Below, in pieces: positions 52,642 to 64,000 of a DNA stretch of 64,000 nt. The notes below the pieces were generated by a model. That model did not search any database. It saw nothing but the letters and a program-made list of their open reading frames with translations, and was not told where the DNA came from. Source of the DNA: Bacteroidales bacterium (GTDB taxonomy: Bacteria; Bacteroidota; Bacteroidia; Bacteroidales; WCHB1-69); contig JAILCI010000040.1 in NCBI GenBank assembly GCA_024686335.1, positions 6,585 through 70,584 on the forward strand. The letters run 5' to 3'. The position numbers and the translations under genes were made by a program. Within the stretch, counting starts at the first letter, position 1. Each line of letters opens with the position of its first letter.

Positions 52642-54228
52642 ATGACCAGGGCACGGGCTCGTAACATCATCACACGCATTGTCGCCATCCTGTTTGGGTG
52701 TACGGCAGCGTTCATTGTGGTCATCAATCTTCTCAAATCCAAATTTACGGGCGTACTGCTCTATTTTCACAAGCTAGAGACACAGCTCCCCCACCCCGTG
52801 CTGATGCTGATGGGAGTCGTTTTCATTGTCGGTTTGTATCTTTTGCTACGCCAAATTGGCGATAGGGAAAAAAGACGTCTTTCGGAACGCAGCACACTAC
52901 TTATCGCGGGTGGAATCTTCTTCGTTTTGCAGATGTTTTTCATCTACAACTACTGCTTTGAGAGTGGCTGGGATGTACAGATGGTGTTGGGGGCCGCACG
53001 AGAGATAGCACATGGCAACAGGGTTGTCGAAACGGGCTGGTATTTCAGCATGTATCCCAACAATCTGTTTATCACACAGATATTTGCCTTTATTCTGTGG
53101 ATCACTATTCCTTTGCACCTCGGCGCGCTCGACTATCTGGCCATCGTGACGGTACAGAGCATGCTCTGCGTGCTGACAGCCTGGATGCTGTATCAGATCA
53201 TCGTTGGGCAGACAAAGAAGCGTTGGCTCGCATGGTTCGGTTTGGCACTATATCTGTTACTCGTCGGCATCTCGCCCTGGACCTCCATTCCCTACTCTGA
53301 CGCTTGGGCTTTGTTTTTTCCCACGGCAGTTCTTTGGGTAGTGACCACCTCCGCATTTAAAGAGAAACCCTTCCTGCGTTGGTTCATAGCAGCAGCGTTA
53401 GCTTACATCGGTTACAAGATCAAGCCGCAGACCATCTTCGTGTTCGTCAGTGCTGTAGGTGTGGACATCATCAACATTCTGTTGGAGAAGGAAAGAAAGC
53501 CTTTGGGTAAGAGTTTCTGGCGGGGCAGTCCGCTCGGCGCCTGCGTGGGTTTAGTGTCAGCTTTTGTCTTCGCGTTAATTATCACGGCGACAGCGCCCAT
53601 TCGGCACAATTCTGACAGCAGGTTTGGCATTCCACATTACCTGATGATGGGCGTCAACCATATCAGTTTGGGCGGTTACTGCGACGATGACGTCATCTTC
53701 TCGCACCAGTACAAGACACCTCGCGAGCGCAACAAGGCAAATCTGCAGGAGACCGCACGACGCCTCCGATGGATGGGTCCTTCGGGATTCGGCTATCTTG
53801 CCTGCGAGAAGACACTCATCAACCATTTCGACGGCACCTTCAACTGGGGCAAGGAGGGCGAGTTCCTCAAGATTGTCTACCCAGAGCGCAACGGACATCT
53901 CTCGCCATTCCTGCGAAATCTGTATTACAACTTGACCATTCATGGAAAATACTATCCCTACTGGTGCACCGGCGCCACCGCCATCTGGCTCGGCGTACTG
54001 TTCTTGATGCTGTTTGCAGCTTTTGGCAAACAGGACCGTTTCAGCATCATCCTGATGCTTAGCATTTTATGCATAACGCTCTTTGAGACAATTTTCGAGG
54101 CACGGTCGAGGTATTTGTATGGGTATGTTCCATTGTATTTTTTGCTGGCGTTACAAGGGATCGGGAAGATAGAGATGGCAATCCAAAAGCTCAGGCAAAA
54201 AAAGCTGCATCATGCAAGCATGTTGTAG
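52642..54228 (+). CDS. Large polytopic membrane protein, possibly a GT-C-type (ArnT/PMT-like) glycosyltransferase
   Basis: The 528-aa protein has about 11-13 hydrophobic helices and one larger soluble loop near residues 330-430. The assignment is by topology only. Confidence 0.35.
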   Translation: MTRARARNIITRIVAILFGCTAAFIVVINLLKSKFTGVLLYFHKLETQLPHPVLMLMGVVFIVGLYLLLRQIGDREKRRLSERSTLLIAGGIFFVLQMFFIYNYCFESGWDVQMVLGAAREIAHGNRVVETGWYFSMYPNNLFITQIFAFILWITIPLHLGALDYLAIVTVQSMLCVLTAWMLYQIIVGQTKKRWLAWFGLALYLLLVGISPWTSIPYSDAWALFFPTAVLWVVTTSAFKEKPFLRWFIAAALAYIGYKIKPQTIFVFVSAVGVDIINILLEKERKPLGKSFWRGSPLGACVGLVSAFVFALIITATAPIRHNSDSRFGIPHYLMMGVNHISLGGYCDDDVIFSHQYKTPRERNKANLQETARRLRWMGPSGFGYLACEKTLINHFDGTFNWGKEGEFLKIVYPERNGHLSPFLRNLYYNLTIHGKYYPYWCTGATAIWLGVLFLMLFAAFGKQDRFSIILMLSILCITLFETIFEARSRYLYGYVPLYFLLALQGIGKIEMAIQKLRQKKLHHASML

Positions 54229-54431
54229 AAGGGCCCTTTTGGGTGGTATTGGTGGAAATGGGAATCAAACTGGAAGGTGTCTCTGGGAAGGAGAAGCAAA
54301 ACCAACAACAATCAACTGTAACAAATATAAATCATTAACTTTTTTTACATAATATAGAAGTGTCATTTTCATCTAACTTTTTGTTATTTTTGCAACAAAA
54401 TATATTAACCATCAAACCACTCGACTTTTTT

Positions 54432-56123
54432 ATGAGCTGCAAATCCAAACACATCTTATGGATTTTTTTGCTGACCCTATTTACAGCATGCAACAAAGTC
54501 AATTTCTCACATTTTAACGAAGGTGACCTTTATGTAACCAAGTACGAAAGCAAAGAGAGAGTTCTCACTATAGACAACGTTGATAAGAAAACCATCACAG
54601 GACGACTTTATACGTGCAATTCACTAATGGCCGTGCCACAATCATACACTGTTATAAAAAAGGGATCCAAAGTGGTGTTTTCAACAGGTGATTCGAAACA
54701 CAAAATTAATATTACGCTAAAGCGTGAAAATGACGACATCCATTGCACCCTCAAAGATCAAAACAAAACGCTGATTTTCTATCCTGCGCTTCCCGAAGAC
54801 ACCATCTCATATCGAAAGCAATATTTAAAACCTATATTCTCTGTCAAGGACACTAATATCATGTATGCCAGCGCCGATGGCTATTGGACCAGTTATCCTG
54901 ACGAGGACAAAAAGTTCAAAGAGATCTACATAAAGCGACTCCCACAGCTTGCCTCTATGAGTGAGCAAAAAATGCATTTGGATCTCTATGAACCTAAGAA
55001 TAACAATACCAAAAGGCCGCTGATTATATTGATTCATGGTGGAGCATTCTACAATGGGGATAAAAAGGATGAGACATATATTAAATGGAGTCAACATTTT
55101 GCCTCCATGGGTTATGTGGCTGCTTCCGTAAATTACAGAATGGGATTTCTCATTCAAAGAGAGTCCATAGACAAAGCCGGCTACCGTGCCGTTCAAGATG
55201 TCAATGCTGCCATTCGCTATCTAGTGCATCATGCTAAGGAATATCGTATCGACCCTGACAGAATCTTCACCTGGGGCACGAGTGCCGGTGGCATCACAGC
55301 ATTGAATGTAGCATTCATGCGCGACGACAACAGACCGCAAAGCGTTAAAGAAGAAGGTGTCATCGCCAAACTCATCCCGGAATGCAGAGACAATTTCCGC
55401 ATCAGGGCAGTTGCCAACATGTGGGGTGCTATTCATGACACAGCCATATTAGCCAATAGCAACACAGCTGTCATATCCTTCCATGGCGATGCCGATCCCA
55501 TTGTCCCTTATGGCTATGGCATCCCATTTAAAAAGATGTTCGACAACAAAGAATTATTAAACATTGATTTCTCCGGTCTCATACCCGAGACATCCGAGTC
55601 CCCAGACTTCTTAGACAAAAGCATTAAAAACTTAAAAGAAGGTTTTAATATTATAACGAAAAAGACCAAGGATGGCATTTCTAAATATATCATCCAACCG
55701 ATCTGGGACAATTTAGTGTCACCGATGTACGGTTCAAGTTGCATACACCAATATCTTGATAATCATGGCATCCGCAACAAACTATTCACGGTGCCTAAGG
55801 CAGGACACAGTCTCCATGTGGACAAGCACCGGAAAATCGTCCCCTATTTCTACACTATACAGGACTCCGTGGCGGAATTCTTCTACCACGAACTATATGA
55901 ACATCCTGTCGTCCTGCAGCAAGACAGCAAAGACCCTACCCTCTTCACCATTGACGACAGTGATGTGGACGAGGCGCACTGGCATGTGGAGGGAGGCATC
56001 ATTCTCGAGTCCTCTAGCGACAAGACTCGCGTGCTCCTCTTCGCCGACCAAAAGAAGAAATCCGTACGCGTTTCGGGTAAATACAACGACGGCTCCGAAT
56101 TCTCAAAGACTCTAAAATTCTGA
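54432..56123 (+). CDS. Lipoprotein alpha/beta hydrolase (carboxylesterase/lipase type)
   Basis: The lipobox is LLTLFTAC, the oxyanion motif is HGGAF and the nucleophile elbow is GTSAGG. The start was moved from the track's upstream start to the internal Met, MSCKSKHILW. That coordinate is taken from the track frame and may be off by 1 nt. Confidence 0.75.
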   Translation: MSCKSKHILWIFLLTLFTACNKVNFSHFNEGDLYVTKYESKERVLTIDNVDKKTITGRLYTCNSLMAVPQSYTVIKKGSKVVFSTGDSKHKINITLKRENDDIHCTLKDQNKTLIFYPALPEDTISYRKQYLKPIFSVKDTNIMYASADGYWTSYPDEDKKFKEIYIKRLPQLASMSEQKMHLDLYEPKNNNTKRPLIILIHGGAFYNGDKKDETYIKWSQHFASMGYVAASVNYRMGFLIQRESIDKAGYRAVQDVNAAIRYLVHHAKEYRIDPDRIFTWGTSAGGITALNVAFMRDDNRPQSVKEEGVIAKLIPECRDNFRIRAVANMWGAIHDTAILANSNTAVISFHGDADPIVPYGYGIPFKKMFDNKELLNIDFSGLIPETSESPDFLDKSIKNLKEGFNIITKKTKDGISKYIIQPIWDNLVSPMYGSSCIHQYLDNHGIRNKLFTVPKAGHSLHVDKHRKIVPYFYTIQDSVAEFFYHELYEHPVVLQQDSKDPTLFTIDDSDVDEAHWHVEGGIILESSSDKTRVLLFADQKKKSVRVSGKYNDGSEFSKTLKF

Positions 56124-56235: not shown

Positions 56236-56529
56236 TTGACCGAAGAGATAAATGCTGAAAAAAAGAGTATCCCTCGGAGTATTCTGCTTCGAAAAATAGA
56301 AGAAATATTGACGAATAGCATCTATACAAAAGGAAAAGAAGAATCTTTAGCGGCACTCATCAAGTTATGCCGAGAGAAAGGACTCTTTTTATCTCATGAA
56401 AAAACGTCTGAAATCCTGAATAGCGTCATAGCACGTTACCGCGCACTCGCGCTCGACGACCCTAGCAAAGCAGCAGTGGAACGGATGGCTATCCAACTGC
56501 AATACTATGCAGCCGACACACCGAAATAG
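56236..56529 (+). CDS. Hypothetical small protein (TTG start), convergent with the TPR gene
   Basis: The 97-aa helical ORF has no recognisable motif. A 33-aa ATG ORF (56129-56230) just upstream in another frame may be part of the same, disrupted gene. Confidence 0.3.
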   Translation: MTEEINAEKKSIPRSILLRKIEEILTNSIYTKGKEESLAALIKLCREKGLFLSHEKTSEILNSVIARYRALALDDPSKAAVERMAIQLQYYAADTPK

Positions 56530-56534
56530 GAACG

Positions 56535-58595
56535 TCAATTCCCCTGTTTTTTATCTTCCATCTTCTTCTTAACGATCTCCACACTCTCTTTCAAGAACTT
56601 AACGTCGGGATGCTCCTCACCGTATGATACCTTTAGTATGTCCAGTGCTTTCTGAAAATACTCTAAAGCCTTTTGGTATTCTCCCTGATGATAACAGACA
56701 TTACCGATGTTGTTATAACCAGTTGCCACATTGGGGTGATTATCGCCATTTACGGATTTCCATATATCCAATGACTGCTGATAGTATTTCAATGCCTGCT
56801 CGTAATCCCCTTGGATTTTGTACACTCCGCCGATATTGTTGTAATTGGTAGCCACATCGGGATGATTCTCGCCATAGATCGACTTATAGATGACCAACTC
56901 TTTCTGGAAATAGTCCAAAGCCTGAAGATATTCACCCTGCAGATAGCATACCAGACCAATATTATTATAGCTAGTAGCTACATCGGGGTGGTTCTCTCCA
57001 TAAACGGACTTGCTGATTGAGAGGGTTTTCTGATAACAACTCATAGCTTGGGCAAACTCACCCTGAGAATAGTAAACCAGACCGATATTGTTGTAAAGTG
57101 TCGCCACTTCGGGATGCTCTTCGCCATATACTGACTTTCTGATATTCAGCGCCTTTTGATAGTATTCCATGGCTTGATCATATTCCCCTTGCGAGTAGTG
57201 CACCAATCCGATATTATTGTAACATATTGCCACATCGGGATGGTTTTCACCATACAAAGACCTACTGATATTCAAAGCACTCTGAAATTGTTCCAAAGCT
57301 TGTGAATATTCCCCTCGACTATAAAGAACGCCTCCAATATTATTGTGACTTGTTGCAACGTTAGGGTCAATCTCTCCGAATACAGACTTGCTAATTTCCA
57401 AGGATTTTTGATAATATTCCATAGCTTGGGTATACTCGCCCTGAGTTTTATACACAAAACCAATATTATTGTAGCATGTTGCCACATTTGGATGATTATC
57501 GCCATATAACGATTTCATAATCGTCAAAGATTTCTGATAAAAAGCCTTAGAATGTTCATACTCTCCTTGATTTTGGTAAACCCCAGCCAAATTGTTGTAT
57601 GCAGTTGCAACGGCTGGATGGGTCTCACCATTTTGCTTTATTGACTGACGCAGAGCCCGCTGATAAAAAGCAACGGCCTTACCCATATCGGCCATATAAT
57701 CATCAATAAAACTTCCAGCATCCAGTTGCCACTCCACATTGGTCGTGTCCAAACCTGCACGCAACTCCAGATAATAAGCTGCTGAATCATTCTGGAACTG
57801 TGCGGAATATTTCTCGAAATAGCTGTAGCATCGACGTGCGAGTTCCTCTTTATCAACGACATACATCTGCTCTGCCTTCTGCAGTCGTTCTCGCTGTTCT
57901 TGTAAAATTTGAGACTTCTGCTGATGTTCTAACACCTGGGCACGCAAATCTCCTCTTGAGCGGAGCAGAGAGTCTGCTTTCAACAACTCGCCATTCTCAA
58001 TAAAGAAAGAGACTTGGCGATAGAACTCGTCCAGCAGATCGTAGTCGAGACCAGCATAACGCTTGGCCATATCAGCAATGAGTCTCTCGTTATTCTCCTG
58101 TTCAGCATAGAGTGCTTGTAAAGCCTGGTGATAGGCATCTTCCGTCAACTTGTGGTTTTCAAGAAGCGAGTCTATCTCCCTTTCCCTTTGCTGAAGCTGG
58201 GCTTGCAGGTTTCTCCGCAGTTTCCGTTCAGATGCCAACTGGTCTGCGAGCTGCTTCTCCGGTGTTTCCATCGTAATCACCAATGGGGTTGCGGTACACG
58301 AATACTGTTTCTTCAACATATCAGGATCTGAGAGCACATAACCCTGTTTAAGCACATTATTAAGATAGAATTTACCTGCCGGAACTGTCAGTTTGAAATC
58401 GCCATTTGCATCACCCACGGTGGAGTGACCGCCAGATAATTGAATAGCCGCGCTGGGGATACGCTTGCCAGGAACCAATTGTCCTTTACTGTCAATTCTC
58501 CCCTTGGTCTTCACATAGCCTTTCTGGGTAGTCTGCGCAATGCCAAAGGTGGCAAAGAGCAGGATCAAAATAACACATATGTTCCATTTTTTCAT
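56535..58595 (-). CDS. Exported CarboxypepD_reg-like / coiled-coil / TPR (kinesin-light-chain-type, about 8 repeats) protein, paralog 1
   Basis: The signal peptide is MKKWNICVILILLFATFGIAQ. The beta-sandwich segment reads GYVKTKGRIDS...GDANGDFKLTVPAGKFYL. A long Gln/Glu/Arg-rich heptad region follows. After that come repeated 42-aa units of the form HPxVAxxYNNIGxVYxxQGEYxxAxxYYQKxLxI. Confidence 0.85.
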   Translation of the reverse strand: MKKWNICVILILLFATFGIAQTTQKGYVKTKGRIDSKGQLVPGKRIPSAAIQLSGGHSTVGDANGDFKLTVPAGKFYLNNVLKQGYVLSDPDMLKKQYSCTATPLVITMETPEKQLADQLASERKLRRNLQAQLQQREREIDSLLENHKLTEDAYHQALQALYAEQENNERLIADMAKRYAGLDYDLLDEFYRQVSFFIENGELLKADSLLRSRGDLRAQVLEHQQKSQILQEQRERLQKAEQMYVVDKEELARRCYSYFEKYSAQFQNDSAAYYLELRAGLDTTNVEWQLDAGSFIDDYMADMGKAVAFYQRALRQSIKQNGETHPAVATAYNNLAGVYQNQGEYEHSKAFYQKSLTIMKSLYGDNHPNVATCYNNIGFVYKTQGEYTQAMEYYQKSLEISKSVFGEIDPNVATSHNNIGGVLYSRGEYSQALEQFQSALNISRSLYGENHPDVAICYNNIGLVHYSQGEYDQAMEYYQKALNIRKSVYGEEHPEVATLYNNIGLVYYSQGEFAQAMSCYQKTLSISKSVYGENHPDVATSYNNIGLVCYLQGEYLQALDYFQKELVIYKSIYGENHPDVATNYNNIGGVYKIQGDYEQALKYYQQSLDIWKSVNGDNHPNVATGYNNIGNVCYHQGEYQKALEYFQKALDILKVSYGEEHPDVKFLKESVEIVKKKMEDKKQGN
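56570..57610 (-). repeat. About 8 tandem 126-bp coding repeats (TPR units) inside paralog 1
   Basis: GCCACATYGGGRTGRTT... recurs at about 56723, 56850, 56976, 57102 and so on. Confidence 0.8.
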
Positions 58596-58639
58596 AACAT
58601 CTGGTTTTTTAAGGACTACGGACTATCCAACTAAAGATT

Positions 58640-60565
58640 TTATTTTTCTTTTTCCAATTTACGCTTAACCATCTCGACATATCCGCTCACCTCTTGCGTA
58701 ATAGCATGATCATCCCCGTAAAGAGTTTTGCAAATGGATAGCGATTTTTGGAAACACTCCAAAGACTTCGCAAAATCTTTCAATGAAGCATAAGCTGTAC
58801 CAAGATTATTGTAATCCTCCACAACGTCTGGATGATTGTCACCAAAAATTGATTTTCTGATGGTTAACGACTTCAGGAAACACTCCTTTGCACGTTCACT
58901 CTCTCCCTGGTAAAAATGGATATAACCCATGTTGTTATAACTCACTGCAATATTGGGATGTTTTTCACCATAAAAAGACTTCCAAATGGCCAAGGCCTTC
59001 TGATAATAGTCCATCGCCGTGCTGAAATCCTGGGCGGAATAGTAAGCAAATCCGAGGTTGTTATAACTTTCAGCGACAGCGGGATGACTCTCGCCAAAGA
59101 CTGATTTTCTAATCGCTAGTGCCTTCTGATAGCATTCTGTCGCATGGGTCAAATCCGACAAGTAGAAATAAGAACCACCCATATTGTTATAGCATTCTGC
59201 CACCGTTGGATGATTCTCTCCATAGACTAACTTTCGGATTTCCAAAGATTTCTGATAATTCTCCATCGCCTTGGTATATTCACCCATACGTTCATACACA
59301 TAGCCTATATTGATATAACTAGTTGCCACGTCAGGATGATTTTCCTCAAGGAGTTTTTGCTTGATGCCCAATGACTTCAGATGATAATTCAATGCCTGGG
59401 AATAATCCCCTTTTGATGCGTAGAGCGTGCCCAAATTGTTGTAACCAGCAGCCACAGCAGGATGGTTCTCGCCATATTCGGACTCGCTGACACTCAAGGC
59501 TTTCTGATAATTATCCAAGGCTTGATCATACTCTCCTTGGTGGTCATACACATAGCCAAGAGTATTATAACATACGGACAATTTAGAGATGTCTTTATCT
59601 TTTTGTGCTGATGTCAGACGCAAAGCACGCTGTAGATAGACCTTTGCTTTTTCGTAATCAGCCAAATACTCATCGATGTAATCCCCAGCCTCGAGTTGCC
59701 AATCCACATTCGTTGTATCCAGTTCTGCTCGCAACTCCAAGTAATAGGCTGCAGAGTCGTTCATAAACTGAGCAGAGAATTTCTCAAAATAACTATAACA
59801 ACGGCGGGCAAGTTCCTCGTTGTCGGCAGCAAAGACCGTCTCAGCCTGATGCAATTGTTCACGCTGCTCTTGTAAAGCCTGACCCTTGCGCTGTTGTTCC
59901 AGCACCTGTTGACGCACATCTCCTCTTGTACGCAATAGCGAATCAGCCTTTACCAACTCCCCATTCTCGATGCAGAAGGAAACCTGGCGGTAGAATTCGT
60001 CCAACAGGTCGTAATCTATCTCCGTATATCGCTTCGCCATCTCTGAAATCAGCATCTCATTATTTTCTTGTTCAGCATAGAGTTTTTGCAAAGCCAGTCG
60101 ATATTCCTCTTCATTTAGCTTATTAATTTCTTTGAGGGAATCTATCTCCTGTTCCTTTTGCATCAGTTGGCGCTGCAATTGGCGACGTAGCTTTCGTTCT
60201 GCAGCCAATTGATCGTCTGCCTGCTGTTCCCGAGTTTCCATTGAAATCACAAGTGGGTTAGCGGAACATACATACTGTTTCTTCAGCACTTCCGGGTCGG
60301 TAAGTACATAACCTTGCTTCTGAACGTTACTCAGAACAAACTTCTTGTCGGGTACAGTCAGTGTGAAGTTACCATTAGCATCAGCCACAGTAGAGCGACC
60401 TCCAGTGAGTTGGATGGCTGCACCGGCGAGACGCTTGCCAGGTATCAATTGTCCCTGACTGTTCATCCTCCCCTTGGTCTTCACATAACCCTTCTGGGTA
60501 GGCTGGGCGACGGCAAGTATCACTGAAAACACAACTAATATGGTAGTGGCTATAAAGCGTTTCAT
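58640..60565 (-). CDS. Exported CarboxypepD_reg-like / coiled-coil / TPR protein, paralog 2
   Basis: It has the same architecture as paralog 1, and the N-terminal about 300 aa are closely similar (GYVKTKGRMNSQGQLIPGKRL..., LDEFYRQVSF.IENGEL.KADSLLR.RGD). It has about 7 TPR units. Confidence 0.85.
   Translation of the reverse strand: MKRFIATTILVVFSVILAVAQPTQKGYVKTKGRMNSQGQLIPGKRLAGAAIQLTGGRSTVADANGNFTLTVPDKKFVLSNVQKQGYVLTDPEVLKKQYVCSANPLVISMETREQQADDQLAAERKLRRQLQRQLMQKEQEIDSLKEINKLNEEEYRLALQKLYAEQENNEMLISEMAKRYTEIDYDLLDEFYRQVSFCIENGELVKADSLLRTRGDVRQQVLEQQRKGQALQEQREQLHQAETVFAADNEELARRCYSYFEKFSAQFMNDSAAYYLELRAELDTTNVDWQLEAGDYIDEYLADYEKAKVYLQRALRLTSAQKDKDISKLSVCYNTLGYVYDHQGEYDQALDNYQKALSVSESEYGENHPAVAAGYNNLGTLYASKGDYSQALNYHLKSLGIKQKLLEENHPDVATSYINIGYVYERMGEYTKAMENYQKSLEIRKLVYGENHPTVAECYNNMGGSYFYLSDLTHATECYQKALAIRKSVFGESHPAVAESYNNLGFAYYSAQDFSTAMDYYQKALAIWKSFYGEKHPNIAVSYNNMGYIHFYQGESERAKECFLKSLTIRKSIFGDNHPDVVEDYNNLGTAYASLKDFAKSLECFQKSLSICKTLYGDDHAITQEVSGYVEMVKRKLEKEK
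58690..59615 (-). repeat. About 7 tandem 126-bp coding repeats (TPR units) inside paralog 2
   Basis: It shows the same periodic HP(D/A/N)VA..YNN.G motif at the DNA and protein levels. Confidence 0.75.
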
Positions 60566-60603
60566 AACTACAGATAAAATATTGATAATTCTTTTACGAT
60601 AAA

Positions 60604-61743
60604 TTACTGCTTAAAGATACAATAGCTATCCCCACATGGCATATATACGCTATCCTCATGCAGAGGAATAGAAGCGGAAAGCGGATAGGTCTTCCGCTGA
60701 GATTCCAACGGAACAGACAGTTTTACCAGTCCCGTTTCATCTGAGCGCACTGTTTTCCCATCTACGACAACATCTATATCTGAAAGAAAAGTCTCAGTCT
60801 GCGGATCATAAAGTCGAAAACGAATATCTCCGTATGTAGCAGGATCACGGGCAACATCAACTATTGTGTTCTTGGTTAAAATCAACGTTGTATCGGTAGG
60901 CAGAAAATCGCGACAGGTAACAGTAATCCGCACGGGGTGGTTCAAATATTTTGAGGGGATATTATGAAAAAGCACCTCCTCTTCCATTGCACGGAGTGTG
61001 TCCGTTTCCGTCTTGTTGTCAAGCGCCAAAGAGACCACGGCATCACGCAATACGGGCAAATTCTCATTATGAACCGAAATCTCGTTTACACGCAGAGAAA
61101 TATCCACAGGCTGGCTTTTTTGCCACACTGCAATCAAAGCTGCCAAGACTGCCACGCAGCCGACCGTCCATGCGACAGTCTTGCGGATAAGCAGACGACG
61201 ATGACGTTTCCATATTGTGTCAAACTCCACATCCAGCAATTTGGATATGAGCTGCACATAGGCTCGCTCACGGTTCATCAAAGGCAAGCGATAGATATTT
61301 TCATGTATATTAGCTCCAAGAATCTCCGGCAAGCCTAATGTTTTGACAACAGGGTTGAAGCATTCCGTGTCGGGGTTTCCGCTATTGGGTTCTCCATCCA
61401 CAATGAAAAAGTGGATATTCTGCGTTCGCCCAATCTGATGGAAAAAGGAGATCTCTCGCCCCACCCACTCCGACTTTGCGGAATGAGGTGAACAAATCAC
61501 AATAAGGTGCTGGGAAGCAAGCAGACGGTCTTGCAGTTCACGAGACAAACCTCCGGGCTGGATATCGGTAGGCGCAAAGAAAATAGGATTGATAGGAGTC
61601 CTCTCCCACCCTCGCTCGCTACACAACGTGGCTGGCATCCGGTAATGCTCCAGTTTCTTCTGCAACCGCTTACCCCACTTGATATCATGGGAGTTATAGC
61701 TGATAAAAGCAAAATATTTGTACTGCTGTTCCATAAGTCTCAT
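60604..61743 (-). CDS. TIR domain - single TM helix - beta-rich ectodomain protein
   Basis: The N-terminal YFAFISYNSHD strand motif is present. SEWVGREISFF places W93-x3-E97 in the position of the TIR catalytic Glu. The TM helix is TVAWTVGCVAVLAALIAVW (about residues 189-207). About 170 aa follow with Ig/CarboxypepD_reg-like strands (VVVDGKTVRSDETGLVKLSVP). The start overlaps the upstream stop as ATGA. Confidence 0.85.
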   Translation of the reverse strand: MRLMEQQYKYFAFISYNSHDIKWGKRLQKKLEHYRMPATLCSERGWERTPINPIFFAPTDIQPGGLSRELQDRLLASQHLIVICSPHSAKSEWVGREISFFHQIGRTQNIHFFIVDGEPNSGNPDTECFNPVVKTLGLPEILGANIHENIYRLPLMNRERAYVQLISKLLDVEFDTIWKRHRRLLIRKTVAWTVGCVAVLAALIAVWQKSQPVDISLRVNEISVHNENLPVLRDAVVSLALDNKTETDTLRAMEEEVLFHNIPSKYLNHPVRITVTCRDFLPTDTTLILTKNTIVDVARDPATYGDIRFRLYDPQTETFLSDIDVVVDGKTVRSDETGLVKLSVPLESQRKTYPLSASIPLHEDSVYMPCGDSYCIFKQ

Positions 61744-62039
61744 TTCTTCTTTCGAGATATTTCAAAACCATTCTTGACGATGAACTTCAACGTCTCAATG
61801 CTAGTATTGCGATCGAAGATTTTCTCCTCTTCAGACAACTGTTCGTATGGGACAAGGCAAGGATGCTTTTTTTCAACGTCATTGCGCTCAGGACCATAGG
61901 TCCAACCTTGAGCAAATCGTGTCGCCGACCAGACTTCATGCACATTCTCTGCCATCAGCTCGGCTAATTCCATCAATTCATCAGACAGTTTCACTTGAGA
62001 AGTGTCTACAGGACTAGGAGTATATCGATTTTCATTCAT
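61740..62039 (-). CDS. Stand-alone RyR (ryanodine-receptor repeat, PF02026-type) domain protein
   Basis: LAELMAENVHEVWSATRFAQGWTYGPERNDVEKKHPCLVPYEQLSEEEKIFDRNTS matches the RyR-domain consensus (HExWa...GW.yG....k.hP.lvpy.eLse.ek..dr). Its 99-aa size matches the small bacterial RyR proteins known from Bacteroides. Confidence 0.85.
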   Translation of the reverse strand: MNENRYTPSPVDTSQVKLSDELMELAELMAENVHEVWSATRFAQGWTYGPERNDVEKKHPCLVPYEQLSEEEKIFDRNTSIETLKFIVKNGFEISRKKK

Positions 62040-62052
62040 CTTACTGAGGATT

Positions 62053-64000
62053 TTATTTCAATGTCATGCGCATTAACCACGGAATATATTTAACTATCTC
62101 GAAATCGAACTGTTGTAAATCGGGAGAGAGATCATTGAAAGGTCTTATTGCATGATGAACATATAACTTCTTATTAGCACTTAATTCTTTTTCAAATTGA
62201 GAATTACAATATAAATCCTCAGACGACTTCGGTTTCCGGAATCCCATGAGCAGTTTCTCCACGTTCCAACGATTATGCTCCACACGACCTAATATCTCTA
62301 TCTCCTTATCCGTAAAAGGATTTTGAAGGATGGATGTACCGTTCGCATCCGAGTCACGCATGGCCTGCAGAGTGTCCAATTTACAGACAATACTGGAAAC
62401 ACAATAGAGATTCGACCACTTTTTAGCGACTGGTAGATTCAACCAATATTTGTTTGCTGCAGACCAAAGATCCTTTTCAGGAATTCCCTCAAGTTCTTTT
62501 GGGCTTTTATAACGGAAAGTGTTATAATCTGCTGTTTCGTAAAGATAATTCAACAATTTAGCCTGATCTATGATTGTCTCGTCCAAGCTATAGGCCATAT
62601 CATCCATGCCAAATGGATAGATATTTGCATATCGATGACCCCGTTTTGCCACATGCAATTTACCTTCATCCACTTTAGCATAGTCATATTCCTTGTCATC
62701 AGCTTTCCTGAGATTGGTAACGAAATCATCGGCCCGATTTTGACGGATAAAGAGCGGTACTGCATTATCGTACACCTCATCAGGCATATTCATCCCCAAA
62801 ATGAAATTTTGCCGCTGGTCAGACATGGCGATAAATACGGAAAGATACTGGTTATCAGTATCTTCAGCCCATTCCTTAATCATGTTCTGGATGTTGGAAT
62901 CGAAGGCATCACCTTTTACAAACTCAAATTCAACGTCCAAAAAATCATTATTGGGTAGATCTTTTGAAACAAGTTTGTCAATTTTCTTCGGCAGGTATTC
63001 AGCATTCTCTCCTGACATATCGGAGAAAAAGTATGGCTGAACCTCAAAGAAATGTCGATTTCGGGTGGTAAAAACCAGCAATTGCTCATCTGCATGTTTG
63101 TCAATAAAGGTTATGCGCGTCCGCAAGGAATTGTCTCTATCAAAGTTCGGGAAATGGAGCAGATGAGCGGCTTCTACTGCTAAGGAAGTAGAGAAATTCG
63201 AAAGGCCAAAAAAGACCAAGTGTACCCTTTTAGTATCTTCATAGACGATTCCATCACCATACACAGAAGGATATGGGATCGCCTCTTTCGGACTGTTTTT
63301 CTCTTTGTAGGAACGACGTACGAGCACCTGGTTGGCCCAATCATCATAGAAATTGTAGGGTACAAATTCAATCCCCAGGCGACAGATCTGCGAGAAAATC
63401 TCTGTTGTTTTAAATGATGAATAGGTATCGAAATCCTCAAAAACGCAAGTTATTCGTCTTGGCTTCGTCTCTGAAGCAGTCTCAGTCAGATATGCATATA
63501 TACTATCCACACTCTCCACGTTAGCAGCATCATGTTCAGGGCGGGTACGGTTACCGACAACGAATATCTCCTTGGCTGCTTCGAGATGAATACTCTTGTA
63601 ACAATCCTTCATGGTGCGATGCCCGTAGGTTATGAAAATCTGGTCCATCTTACCGTGAGCCACAGAACGGAGCAATTTCTCGTTTACGACCTTAGCATCA
63701 AGAGCAGTGAGCAAGAGCACATCCGCTTTCGGATCTTTGGCAAACAATTCCGAAATAATGGAGGGCACCATGTCATCGTAGCCCATGATTATAAAGTGAC
63801 CGCTTTTGAGATATTGAAGCAAACCATTCCGATGAGCCTCCACCCGACGATTGATTGTGTTTGTGATAATACCTATGATAATACCATTAAAGATAATGAG
63901 ACCGAAGAGGTATGAAATTCCGCTTGCTATCAGCAGCCAGCCATGGGTTCCTTCGGCAAGATAGATACAACTATACGCACTGGAATCTATAAGCAGAAAT
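62053..64000 (-). CDS. Membrane protein with two Rossmann-like (RCK/TrkA-N-like) segments and a C-terminal RyR-like module; the 5' end is outside the window
   Basis: The frame is open upstream of the track's GTG at 63843, all the way to the window edge. My translation there is FLLIDSSAYSCIYLAEGTHGWLLIASGISYLFGLIIFNGIIIGIITNTINRRVEAHRNG, which contains a TM helix. The Rossmann-like segments are HFIIMGYDDMVPSIISEL and VHLVFFGLSNFSTSLAVEAAHLL. The C-terminus reads LGRVEHNRWNVEKLLMGF...HHAIRPFNDLSPDLQQFDFEIV. Confidence 0.7.
   Translation of the reverse strand, partial: FLLIDSSAYSCIYLAEGTHGWLLIASGISYLFGLIIFNGIIIGIITNTINRRVEAHRNGLLQYLKSGHFIIMGYDDMVPSIISELFAKDPKADVLLLTALDAKVVNEKLLRSVAHGKMDQIFITYGHRTMKDCYKSIHLEAAKEIFVVGNRTRPEHDAANVESVDSIYAYLTETASETKPRRITCVFEDFDTYSSFKTTEIFSQICRLGIEFVPYNFYDDWANQVLVRRSYKEKNSPKEAIPYPSVYGDGIVYEDTKRVHLVFFGLSNFSTSLAVEAAHLLHFPNFDRDNSLRTRITFIDKHADEQLLVFTTRNRHFFEVQPYFFSDMSGENAEYLPKKIDKLVSKDLPNNDFLDVEFEFVKGDAFDSNIQNMIKEWAEDTDNQYLSVFIAMSDQRQNFILGMNMPDEVYDNAVPLFIRQNRADDFVTNLRKADDKEYDYAKVDEGKLHVAKRGHRYANIYPFGMDDMAYSLDETIIDQAKLLNYLYETADYNTFRYKSPKELEGIPEKDLWSAANKYWLNLPVAKKWSNLYCVSSIVCKLDTLQAMRDSDANGTSILQNPFTDKEIEILGRVEHNRWNVEKLLMGFRKPKSSEDLYCNSQFEKELSANKKLYVHHAIRPFNDLSPDLQQFDFEIVKYIPWLMRMTLK

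Follow-up and report, generated by a model that had tools for sequence, protein, structure and literature searches.

Among the closest described counterparts of the locus reported here are TIR signalling systems of the Thoeris kind, among which types II, V and X have membrane or ion-channel effectors, type X (reported in December 2025) combining a TIR protein with the ion-channel effector ThsK (10.64898/2025.12.03.692087). RyR domains have been tied to TIR signals from the phage side: according to a bioRxiv preprint of May 2026, phages encode RyR-domain proteins that function as cADPR glycosidases or sponges, 6 of the 8 phage RyDEP homologs tested bind TIR signals (two with a measured nanomolar Kd), and RyDEP residues H75, W78, H100 and D117 contact or cleave 2'/3'cADPR (PMC13232231), which makes outdated the statement in a sequence-only reading of this DNA that no link between TIR and RyR was known. 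In animals, the R12 domain binds adenine nucleotides, including ATP and ADP, at equivalent Trp residues (PMC12627627). Our literature search found no paper on a host operon pairing TIR with RyR-domain proteins, and the available parts of the Thoeris survey and its supplementary text did not mention RyR (10.64898/2025.12.03.692087). Given that RyR domains can bind TIR-made cyclic ADP-ribose signals, a TIR operon with RyR partners, as described below, probably represents a bacterial TIR signalling system that has not been described before.

In the window (the whole 64,000-nucleotide stretch analysed, from a rumen Bacteroidales), five minus-strand genes, A to E, are packed tightly at 56535-64000; direct reading of the sequence gives gaps of 13 nt between A and B, 38 nt between C and D and 44 nt between D and E, while B and C overlap by ATGA; all open reading frames and spacings were found as previously claimed. 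Gene A (62053 to beyond 64000) is an open frame to the window edge encoding the 648 C-terminal residues of 713, and its missing 5' part was supplied by a contig, L001, identical to the window over 8000 of 8000 nt compared (full-length A, L001:2739-4877). It is followed by B (61740..62039; 99 aa), C (60604..61743; 379 aa, or 376 aa in the public annotation, which begins at Met4), D (58640..60565; 641 aa) and E (56535..58595; 686 aa), the last in the operon. The promoter had been placed, as probable, outside the window; TAnnTTTG boxes on the L001 coding strand occur only at 60 and 90 nt upstream of the ATG of A and nowhere in the 7.7-kb cluster, an absence that is weakly informative because ~2.7 boxes would be expected there by chance. 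The very short gaps and the position of these promoter-like boxes only upstream of A speak for a single operon. We regard as evenly balanced the joint proposal that A to E form one operon and that this operon specifies a Thoeris-like TIR signalling system, built of two modules and coupled to the envelope.

The gene arrangement is conserved well beyond chance. We surveyed neighbours within 10 kb in 80 species-level Bacteroidales loci with an A homolog, whose relatedness means that the following counts are not phylogenetically independent: a RyR gene was present in 48 loci (at most 700 nt from A in 38), at least one TIR gene in 45, and neither in 19. The TIR genes, 78 overall (77 confirmed by Pfam TIR_2) and of at least four architectures (TIR-TM, TIR-WD40, SIR2-TIR and short TIR), made up 76 of 806 same-strand genes near A versus 2 of 375 opposite-strand genes (Fisher p = 4e-11), and 65 of them shared an unbroken co-directional run with A. 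The order A-B-C-D recurs where A is only 57-70% identical and is found in rearranged versions at 47-55% identity; orders read in individual lineages were A-B-C-D (P0178; 24 contigs read, 103 index blocks), A-...-RyR-TerB-C-TPR (P0235) and A'-C-D (P0233). Flanking contexts of the cluster differ among loci, and RyR domains also occur in natural fusions, namely of A with B (A+RyR; P0101), RyR+TPR_12 and peptidase-like+RyR. Gene order, strand bias and the A+B fusion thus bear out the linkage of TIR and RyR genes that had been proposed. In the loci examined starting from the TIR gene, C was never without a D-like TPR partner, and A or B was usually, not always, present (B, C and D occur without A in L091, and C with D also without both A and B). 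Other neighbours of A homologs include CHAT, trypsin, SIR2 and PrsW, which are typical of conflict systems. Housekeeping genes flank the window locus and its counterparts in the P0178 lineage, so that the context is not a defence island; likewise, no PADLOC model matched A or B and the PADLOC ThsB models matched C weakly (~16 bits), which does not support the suggestion of a defence system.

Gene A is predicted to encode a signal-gated, channel-type effector resembling GsuK, MthK and BK. Its hydrophobic segments (residues 24-42 and 92-110) would correspond to TM1 and TM2 of an AF2 model (pLDDT 88.6, pTM 0.83) laid out as TM1, re-entrant helix, TM2, RCK1, RCK2 and a divergent C-terminal RyR module, for which the best Foldseek matches were GsuK (4gx1, 4gx0 and 4gx2; E 4e-8), the CASTOR gating ring, Slo1 and MthK. 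The model is co-linear with GsuK from TM1 through RCK2 (Foldseek E 4e-8 to 1e-5), a similarity to tandem-RCK channels that supports the earlier view of A as a channel-like membrane effector, although A shares only 9-16% sequence identity with GsuK, MthK, BK, Slo1, CASTOR and DMI1, carries a C-terminal RyR module present in none of them, and, unlike tandem-RCK channels, has neither a TVGYG filter nor a GxGxxG motif. As the canonical K+ selectivity filter is absent, a conducting pore is suggested by topology and fold only, and the absence of the GxGxxG dinucleotide motif from the RCK folds (which read IMGYDDM and FFGLSNF there) makes it doubtful that the Rossmann-like segments read NAD+. In Pfam, this copy of A had no match above threshold, RCK and TrkA included; some family members exceed the Slo-like_RCK cutoff (29.2 bits; cutoff 24), and the RCK and RyR-like calls for A rest on structure prediction and family-level evidence.

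The RyR-like module of A (62056..62589; residues 536-713; 178 aa, helical, a divergent RyR repeat) contains the motif VEH640NRW643 ... H680 ... D697 (~62104-62277), in which H640, W643, H680 and D697 align with RyDEP H75, W78, H100 and D117. Among 84 homologs, the first three never vary and D697 is conserved in at least 90%; the A6 set of 48 A C-termini shows no variation at any of the four, and the His/Trp/His/Asp set is retained even in a cytosolic paralog at 25% identity. Pfam RyR matches 16 of 48 A-family C-termini (best E 8.6e-5) but not that of A itself, and neither hhalign with the module (P 0.013, probability 3%) nor Foldseek with a model of the C-terminal fragment (top matches the RyR1/RyR2 repeat domains 4ETT, 4ETU and 4ETV; E 0.6-2, TM 0.36-0.39) reached significance. 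Gene B, by comparison, is the stand-alone RyR-domain protein it had been taken for (Pfam RyR PF02026, 125 bits; cutoff 27.4), with PDB matches to 3NRT/6UAG, a 'putative ryanodine receptor' of Bacteroides thetaiotaomicron (E 1e-33), and also to RyR R12 domains. Its residues H34, W37, H59 and D76, invariant in B homologs (36 sequences), align with the same four RyDEP residues at the same spacing, so that B shares with RyDEP its Pfam family, pocket and catalytic residues and similar size, though only 28% identity. The ligands of RyDEP are TIR products, but RyDEP is viral and acts against the TIR system of its host, whereas B is chromosomal, conserved in a TIR-gene operon and either next to a channel-like protein or fused with one, which implies a host-side role. 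B is thus predicted to bind or cleave a TIR-made ADPR-type signal, as a receptor subunit, a buffer or an off-switch. Together with the conserved gene order and the A+B fusion, these exact RyDEP residues argue for functional coupling of the TIR protein to the RyR proteins. As to the suggestion that the RyR and Rossmann-like modules read the TIR product or NAD+, its RyR part is strengthened by these residues and its Rossmann part is weakened by the missing GxGxxG.

RyR repeats bind ATP and ADP too, and the ligand could therefore be something other than a TIR product. It is possible, though unlikely, that the cluster serves ion homeostasis or envelope stress without any TIR-made messenger, with B and the RyR module of A sensing ATP/ADP as energy state, A acting as an RCK-regulated cation channel, C being only an NADase or scaffold, and co-location reflecting a shared envelope-stress regulon. 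Such a role would fit the nucleotide binding of R12 domains, the regulation of GsuK-type channels by ADP and NAD+ (from PDB titles), the housekeeping flanks, the lack of PADLOC matches for A and B, and the 19 A loci that lack both TIR and RyR genes in their surroundings; however, it leaves unexplained why at least four TIR architectures repeatedly enter the co-directional run of A and why A has neighbours typical of conflict systems, and the conserved RyDEP catalytic dyad (His, Asp) goes beyond the adenine-stacking Trp. We consider it improbable that B is instead a host quencher (sponge or glycosidase) guarding against its own TIR, as ring nucleases do in type III CRISPR, with A not the receptor and the real effector being TIR-driven NAD+ depletion or lying elsewhere. 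The activities of the phage proteins, the catalytic His and Asp kept in B, and the locus with B, C and D but no A all agree with quenching, but the same pocket residues are conserved family-wide at the C-terminus of A, and the RyR gene is close to A in 38 loci and fused to it in one. On B, quenching is compatible with the signalling system that we favour; the two differ only on A.

In that signalling system, C is the predicted sensor and signal generator. It exceeds the cutoffs of both Pfam TIR_2 (36.2 bits; cutoff 28) and ThsB_TIR (27.3 bits; cutoff 21.2), and it has the TIR-TM-ectodomain architecture first read from the sequence: an N-terminal, cytoplasmic TIR domain (~61249-61743; Glu97 codon 61453-61455), a TM helix (61123-61179; residues 189-207) preceded by RHRRLLIRK, and an extracytoplasmic domain of ~170 aa (60607-61122). 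Toll-like receptors are organised in the same way, with one TM helix joining an extracytoplasmic part to a cytoplasmic TIR, but the ectodomain of C has no leucine-rich repeats (LRR) and no Pfam match, and the TIR of C retains the catalytic Glu, which makes it probably an enzyme. It is very improbable that this TIR is a non-enzymatic interaction module, comparable to animal TLR adaptors, that recruits A, B or others at the membrane with no small molecule involved: the TLR-like topology and the closest PDB sequence match, the TLR2 TIR domain (weak; E 0.09), point that way, but E97 and the SxWVxxE motif are invariant in 43 homologs, the E97 position is nearly invariant in the 78 TIRs neighbouring A homologs, and the partners carry a nucleotide pocket. 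The bacterial TIRs characterised to date are, to our knowledge, enzymes that process NAD+. Coincidental adjacency of unrelated neighbours, to which the loci with C and D but no A and B, and those with A but no TIR gene, might point, is effectively refuted by the recurring gene order and TIR strand bias across A loci, along with the fusion proteins and differing flanking contexts.

D and E share 59% identity over 620 aa, score 302 and 444 bits, respectively, against TPR_12, and begin with hydrophobic, signal-peptide-like segments (residues 4-22 and 5-23). In D, which would be either exported or anchored, a small beta-rich domain comes after this N-terminus, then a long helical stretch rich in charge, then KLC-type TPR_12/TPR_10 repeats. 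They are thus paralogs with signal-peptide-like N-termini and TPR repeats, as had been described, whereas the CarboxypepD_reg domain also assigned to them remained below the cutoff of 32 bits (16-17.5 bits in D). A D-like gene adjoins C in every C locus examined, and most related loci have a single one, so E is a lineage-specific duplication. The predicted topology (the TM helix of C and the N-termini of D and E) is consistent with the envelope-side layer proposed earlier for the C ectodomain and exported D and E. In two loci (L036 and L040), B and C are separated by an inserted gene for a TonB_C protein.

The analysis shows in what order the genes lie, what domains they encode, which residues are conserved and that the genes recur together. 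What triggers the system, what the enzyme makes, whether a ligand binds, whether A acts as a channel and any role in defence are matters of inference, for which we propose the following. The first module, sensor and signal maker, would consist of C, as a TLR-like single-pass TIR protein, with D and E acting with its periplasmic domain; an extracytoplasmic cue would cluster or activate the TIR domains, which would then turn NAD+ into an ADPR-derived nucleotide (for example, a cADPR isomer). The second module, the receiver, would comprise channel-like A, with its tandem-RCK gating region and RyR pocket, and B, a free RyR protein with the same pocket, and the signal would bind both. Binding to A might change ion flux, leading to membrane depolarisation and growth arrest or to an adaptive ion response, while B might either complete the receptor, as the natural A+B fusion would suggest, or sequester or hydrolyse the signal, thereby setting a threshold or switching the system off.

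Beyond RyDEP, the channels and Toll-like receptors, the locus can be set against three described systems. Parts found beside A homologs (TIR, SIR2-TIR, CHAT, trypsin-FHA, kinase, WD40, TPR and FGE-sulfatase (FGS) domains) resemble the repertoire of Aravind-type NTP-dependent or apoptosis-like conflict systems (Kaur et al. 2020, PMC7159879), but the vWA-MoxR, STAND or GTPase core of those systems was not seen in A loci, and RyR, TerB and PrsW have no mention in that paper. With animal ryanodine receptors, B shares 40-60% identity to their RyR repeats over ~90 aa (E ~1e-20 per repeat), and, as there, the repeat forms part of, or is the partner of, a protein resembling an ion channel; the animal link between cADPR and RyR (direct binding of cADPR by the repeats being itself unproven) is matched here by genetic linkage of the repeat to TIR, a family that makes cADPR isomers. 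However, A and B each have a single repeat rather than four, and the membrane and RCK parts of A show no relationship to the RyR channel core other than a generic pore-loop topology. In Thoeris (types I-XI), a TIR protein is likewise in an operon with a nucleotide-sensor protein that has a membrane or ion-channel output, and the same logic, in which TIR makes an ADPR-type signal that an effector reads, may apply here. Whereas Thoeris has two genes and senses through SLOG, Macro, DUF2270, DUF6650 or SLATT domains, this locus has five genes outside a defence-island context, a RyR repeat as the candidate sensor, and a transmembrane TIR protein with an ectodomain that is always paired with exported TPR proteins.

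The five genes of the cluster lie on the minus strand as gene E (56535-58595), gene D (58640-60565), gene C (60604-61743), gene B (61740-62039) and gene A (62053 to the window edge), the ORFs falling where the sequence-only reading had placed them. Direct reading of the junctions returned the spacing that it had reported (a 13-nt gap, an ATGA overlap, and gaps of 38 and 44 nt). The frame of A is open to base 63999 and holds 648 residues within the window; an ORF lister had closed it at a GTG, as an ORF of 596 aa (62053-63843), which was set aside because the frame runs without a stop up to the window edge. A public metagenome contig, L001, is identical to this region (8000 of 8000 bases) and places the start of A 65 codons past the window edge, giving a complete protein of 713 aa. 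In the public annotation, gene C starts at the second ATG, for a product of 376 aa. On the coding strand of L001, Bacteroidetes-type TAnnTTTG boxes occur at just two places, 60 and 90 nt ahead of the ATG of A, and the reported lack of a box in the internal gaps extends to the whole 7.7-kb cluster; since about 2.7 boxes would be expected there by chance, this absence is weak evidence, and the distribution of boxes is consistent with a single operon. A scan for sigma-70 promoters and terminators tells nothing useful in Bacteroidales. Directly downstream of E and convergent with it lies an ORF of 97 aa (56236-56529, plus strand), which has no significant Pfam match, is absent from the public gene calls of the identical contig and is probably not a real gene.

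From the observed anatomy, residue conservation and genomic linkage of this cluster, we infer an enzyme product, its binding, channel gating, a trigger and a possible role in defence, on a basis that is computational throughout. The best-supported interpretation, to which we give roughly even confidence, is a signalling system resembling Thoeris, the TIR-based anti-phage systems, in which C, aided by D and E outside, would sense a cue and turn NAD+ into an ADPR-type nucleotide, and A and B would read that nucleotide through their RyR pockets. A would be the output, a channel-type effector. B would be a subunit of the receptor, or else would buffer the signal or switch it off, much as the ring nucleases of type III CRISPR do.

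Sequence searches of Pfam, NCBIfam and the PDB gave no significant match for the candidate output, A, and PADLOC gave none. The AlphaFold2 model of A (84 homologs; pLDDT 88.6, pTM 0.83) was most similar in the PDB to the tandem-RCK channel GsuK, including its ADP- and NAD-bound forms (Foldseek E values of 4e-8 to 3e-7, probability 1.00, 500-565 aligned columns, with low TM scores of 0.3-0.5 that may reflect domain orientation in a multi-domain protein), followed by the CASTOR/DMI1 gating rings, BK/Slo1 channels and MthK, and some distant members of the A family score above the Pfam Slo-like_RCK threshold. At the N-terminus, the model has transmembrane helices at residues 24-42 and 86-122, the second of them kinked, with two short helices (62-79) and a loop (80-85) in between, a predicted pore-loop channel layout that is followed by a tandem RCK fold, as in RCK-gated P-loop cation channels. 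No TVGYG-like K+ selectivity filter is present between the transmembrane helices; the loop reads A-E-G-T-H-G-W, with a family consensus of G-x-V-H-G-W. The two Rossmann-like segments recognized from sequence hold up as folds, namely the two RCK domains, and do not hold up as canonical NAD+-binding sites: both glycine-rich motifs are degenerate, with GxGxxG kept in neither, so such binding was set aside. The family is large and unannotated, with 2425 clusters at 50% identity (593 at an E value of 1e-30 or better), most of them labelled 'hypothetical'.

A protein of this build could also be a channel for ion homeostasis or energy sensing whose RyR modules read ATP or ADP. ADP among the ligands of the GsuK structures would suit that role, as would the animal R12 domain, in which ATP or ADP is bound at the equivalent tryptophans (PMC12627627); the recurrent TIR neighbours of A, described below, speak for signalling instead, and we consider the energy-sensing alternative unlikely.

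In the signalling interpretation, the sensing role of the RyR modules is proposed by analogy with RyDEP, a phage RyR-domain defence-evasion protein described in a May 2026 preprint that covers viral proteins only (PMC13232231). Six of the eight phage RyR homologs tested there bind the RyDEP signals without cleavage, with nanomolar affinity in the two measured, and conserved residues do not predict cleavage versus sequestration (PMC13232231). The RyDEP pocket, whose residues bind or cleave 2'/3'cADPR, combines a catalytic dyad (H75 and D117) with W78, which stacks on the adenine, and H100, which contacts the phosphates, and its authors describe these residues as conserved across PF02026 (PMC13232231).

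B, proposed from sequence as an RyR-domain protein, matched PF02026 at 125 bits (cutoff 27.4), and in the PDB it matched the crystallized 'putative ryanodine receptor' of Bacteroides thetaiotaomicron (3NRT/6UAG, E about 1e-33) as well as animal RyR repeat domains, including R12; it also matched DUF7701. Aligned with RyDEP (the DyoEdafos gp78 sequence), residues H34, W37, H59 and D76 of B occupy the columns of H75, W78, H100 and D117 with identical spacing (3, 22 and 17), and none of the four varies among 36 B-type sequences, RyDEP included. By these residues B appears to be a RyDEP-type RyR protein, for which binding or cleavage of 2'cADPR or 3'cADPR is a prediction. A prophage origin, as might be imagined from the phage source of RyDEP, was rejected because many species keep B in an operon on the chromosome, and because the phage collection held a single match to it with more than 60% coverage, an unannotated 12-kb faecal contig.

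The RyR-like module that the sequence-only reading saw at the C-terminus of A found support at the level of the family and fell short of significance for this copy alone, which has no PF02026 match. When 48 orthologous C-termini were scanned singly, PF02026 was by far the commonest family (16 of 48, best E 8.6e-5), with DUF7701 second. A model of the fragment spanning residues 536-713 (pLDDT 83.7) had RyR1/RyR2 tandem-repeat domains as its top PDB matches, at non-significant scores (E 0.6-2, TM 0.36-0.39), and Foldseek against a viral library found nothing for the same fragment. Alignment of the C-terminus with the B family by hhalign was likewise non-significant (P 0.013, probability 3%), with the motifs in register. 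Residues H640, W643, H680 and D697 of A align with the columns of RyDEP H75, W78, H100 and D117; all four are invariant in the 48-sequence set, and among 84 homologs the first three never vary, and conservation of D697 is 90% or more. The same His/Trp/His/Asp pocket is retained in a 25%-identical cytosolic paralog. We treat the tail of A as a divergent RyR module, with support at the level of the family and short of proof for this copy.

These data also bear on a different division of labour, in which B would be a purely self-protective quencher and A no receptor at all. The phage homologs that bind without cleaving offer a precedent for quenching; the pocket conserved throughout the A family points the other way, and we think this reading improbable, somewhat more so than energy sensing.

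As a separate observation, short paralogs of A (about 480-520 aa; loci L025, L030, L043 and L067) lack the membrane part and the first RCK domain and keep the second RCK domain and the RyR-like tail, His/Trp/His/Asp residues included. Each is the first gene of a co-directional array that goes on with trypsin-FHA, a protein kinase, a CHAT protease and a 490-aa protein of unknown kind (for example, L030: 1534-3009, 2997-4373, 4373-5578 and 5574-7958).

Turning to the presumed signal maker, the assignment of C as a TIR protein was borne out (TIR_2 at 36.2 bits, cutoff 28; ThsB_TIR at 27.3 bits, cutoff 21.2), and Glu97, within an SxWVxxE motif, is invariant in 43 homologs. Hydropathy gives a single transmembrane helix (residues 189-207) with a run of basic residues just before it, and the ectodomain has no Pfam match. 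D and E, 59% identical paralogs, matched TPR_12/TPR_10 (302 and 444 bits) and have signal-peptide-like N-termini, in agreement with their description as exported TPR proteins; the CarboxypepD_reg domains also attributed to their N-termini did not hold (16-17.6 bits, against cutoffs of about 32). Given the basic run beside the helix of C and the N-termini of D and E, C is predicted to keep its TIR domain in the cytoplasm and to have a further domain outside, and D and E are predicted to be extracytoplasmic. A TIR domain acting as scaffold only would be compatible with this topology; beside an invariant Glu97, we find that idea hard to credit.

A profile of A recovered 80 loci in species-representative genomes, all of them phylogenetically related rumen or gut Bacteroidales MAGs. 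An RyR gene was present at 48 (less than 700 nt from A at 38), and one or more TIR genes lay within 10 kb at 45; 19 loci had neither. The TIR genes totalled 78, of which Pfam TIR_2 confirms 77 and 65 stand in an unbroken co-directional run with A, and they made up 76 of the 806 same-strand genes versus 2 of the 375 on the opposite strand (odds ratio 19, Fisher p = 4e-11, for loci that are phylogenetically related). The synteny of TIR and RyR genes, which the sequence-only reading had proposed to check across Bacteroidales, is conserved: the order A-B-C-D is kept where A is 57-70% identical, and where A is 47-55% identical rearranged forms appear (A-D-C; A-D...C-B; A-B-TonB_C-C-D; and D-C about 7 kb upstream). 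The TIR partners comprise TIR-TM-ectodomain, TIR-WD40, SIR2-TIR and short TIR proteins, and further recurrent neighbours include CHAT, trypsin-FHA, protein kinase, PrsW and M48 proteases and TerB, families that are usual parts of conflict and cell-death systems; PADLOC, run on ten recurrent neighbour families, returned matches at the level of the TIR domain only. Fusion proteins tie the parts together (A with RyR in P0101, RyR with TPR_12, and a peptidase-like domain with RyR). Chance adjacency is, in the face of such strand bias and fusions, next to negligible as an explanation.

Viewed from homologs of C, the arrangements were A-B-C-D between housekeeping genes (P0178; 24 contigs read, 103 index blocks), A-x-(peptidase-like RyR)-TerB-C-TPR... 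adjoining RhuM, NUDIX and SLFN_AlbA_2 genes upstream (P0235), a distant A homolog followed by C-D (P0233), C-D-B without A (P0173) and D-D-C without A or B (P0220). Thus, C and D are the constant pair, and A and B a frequent, non-obligatory partner module. Several loci carry additional genes. In a recurrent pair directly after A (L063:12156-13641, L064:12177-13626, L088:6590-8105 and similar), an unknown 185-aa protein that neither Pfam nor PADLOC matched is followed by a protein of about 315 aa with a weakly Peptidase_C39-like N-terminus and a C-terminal RyR domain; at L045:14906-16270 the RyR domain is fused instead to TPR_12 repeats. Two divergent loci have a TonB_C-domain protein (Pfam E 9e-21) between B and C (L036:12491-13300 and L040:12491-13342), an insertion that fits an envelope-spanning role of the sensor module, and there the D-like protein is encoded in two pieces, a short N-terminal gene and a TPR gene of 1031 aa.

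On an informal look, the cluster is flanked by housekeeping genes rather than set in a defence island. Downstream are an esterase gene and a membrane-protein gene; upstream of A, on L001, are a truncated FGE-sulfatase fragment and then divergent amidase and metallophosphatase genes. The fragment (L001:2261-2587, plus strand, beyond window base 64000 and about 150 nt upstream of the start of A) covers only the C-terminal half of the domain (Pfam E 2e-22, profile positions 158-254 of 255). Because a complete FGE-sulfatase domain forms the C-terminus of the long A-family members P0492, P0494 and P0487 (1185-1346 aa), it may be left over from a related system component. Among related MAGs, the position of the cluster relative to the same flanking genes varies (window 52642-56123 compared with L003, L009 and L011): in L009 it sits between the esterase and CHIM_prot membrane-protein genes, and in the window these two are adjacent, with the cluster on the other side of the esterase. 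This shifting position points to a movable cassette, although we saw no mobility genes.

A bolder version of the signalling interpretation, which we advance tentatively and think rather more apt to be wrong than right, holds that the locus unites in one bacterial system the whole of a pathway whose parts are scattered in animals. A transmembrane TIR receptor resembling TLRs, with the exported TPR proteins as co-receptors, would sense an extracytoplasmic cue and make a cyclic ADP-ribose isomer, RyR repeats would be the dedicated receptors gating an ion channel, phage RyDEP proteins would be stolen copies, and the whole would represent a prokaryotic ancestor of the cADPR-RyR link, with the RyR repeat as the cADPR site. 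In animals the link between cADPR and the ryanodine receptor is disputed. If true, these proposals would extend RyR repeats from phage counter-defence to host-side receptors or regulators of TIR-made nucleotides, explain the source of the phage RyDEP proteins and give a function to the large unannotated A family. They would also provide a TIR protein from bacteria whose membrane topology resembles that of a receptor and whose partners are periplasmic, widening the reach of TIR signalling from intracellular to envelope sensing, and a simple bacterial model (a 99-aa protein and a 713-aa channel) for a direct test of whether RyR repeats bind cADPR isomers and relay this to a channel.

Neither a host TIR-RyR operon nor an RCK-RyR protein is described in the literature searched, and RyR is absent from the survey of conflict systems by Kaur et al. 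A Thoeris survey of December 2025 presents 29 putative effector types, with types V-XI validated, among them the type X 'ion channel' effector ThsK, whose signal is not known; RyR is not mentioned in the accessible text and four supplementary files (10.64898/2025.12.03.692087). What the A-B-C-D(E) cluster has in common with Thoeris is a TIR gene in an operon with a candidate signal-sensing effector (gaps of 44 nt or less, conserved synteny). It differs in that PADLOC v2, whose 2023 database is older than Thoeris types V-XI, does not recognize it as ThsA/ThsB: neither A nor B was matched, and C drew weak ThsB matches (15.8 bits, E 0.0016). The TIR sequences of type X look unrelated to that of C beyond the fold. 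TIR signalling systems are a known kind, to which this cluster adds three new features in presumed roles: RyR repeats as a putative host-side signal-reading domain; a tandem-RCK channel-like protein, as modelled, for output; and a predicted signal maker that is a TLR-like transmembrane TIR protein with exported TPR partners.
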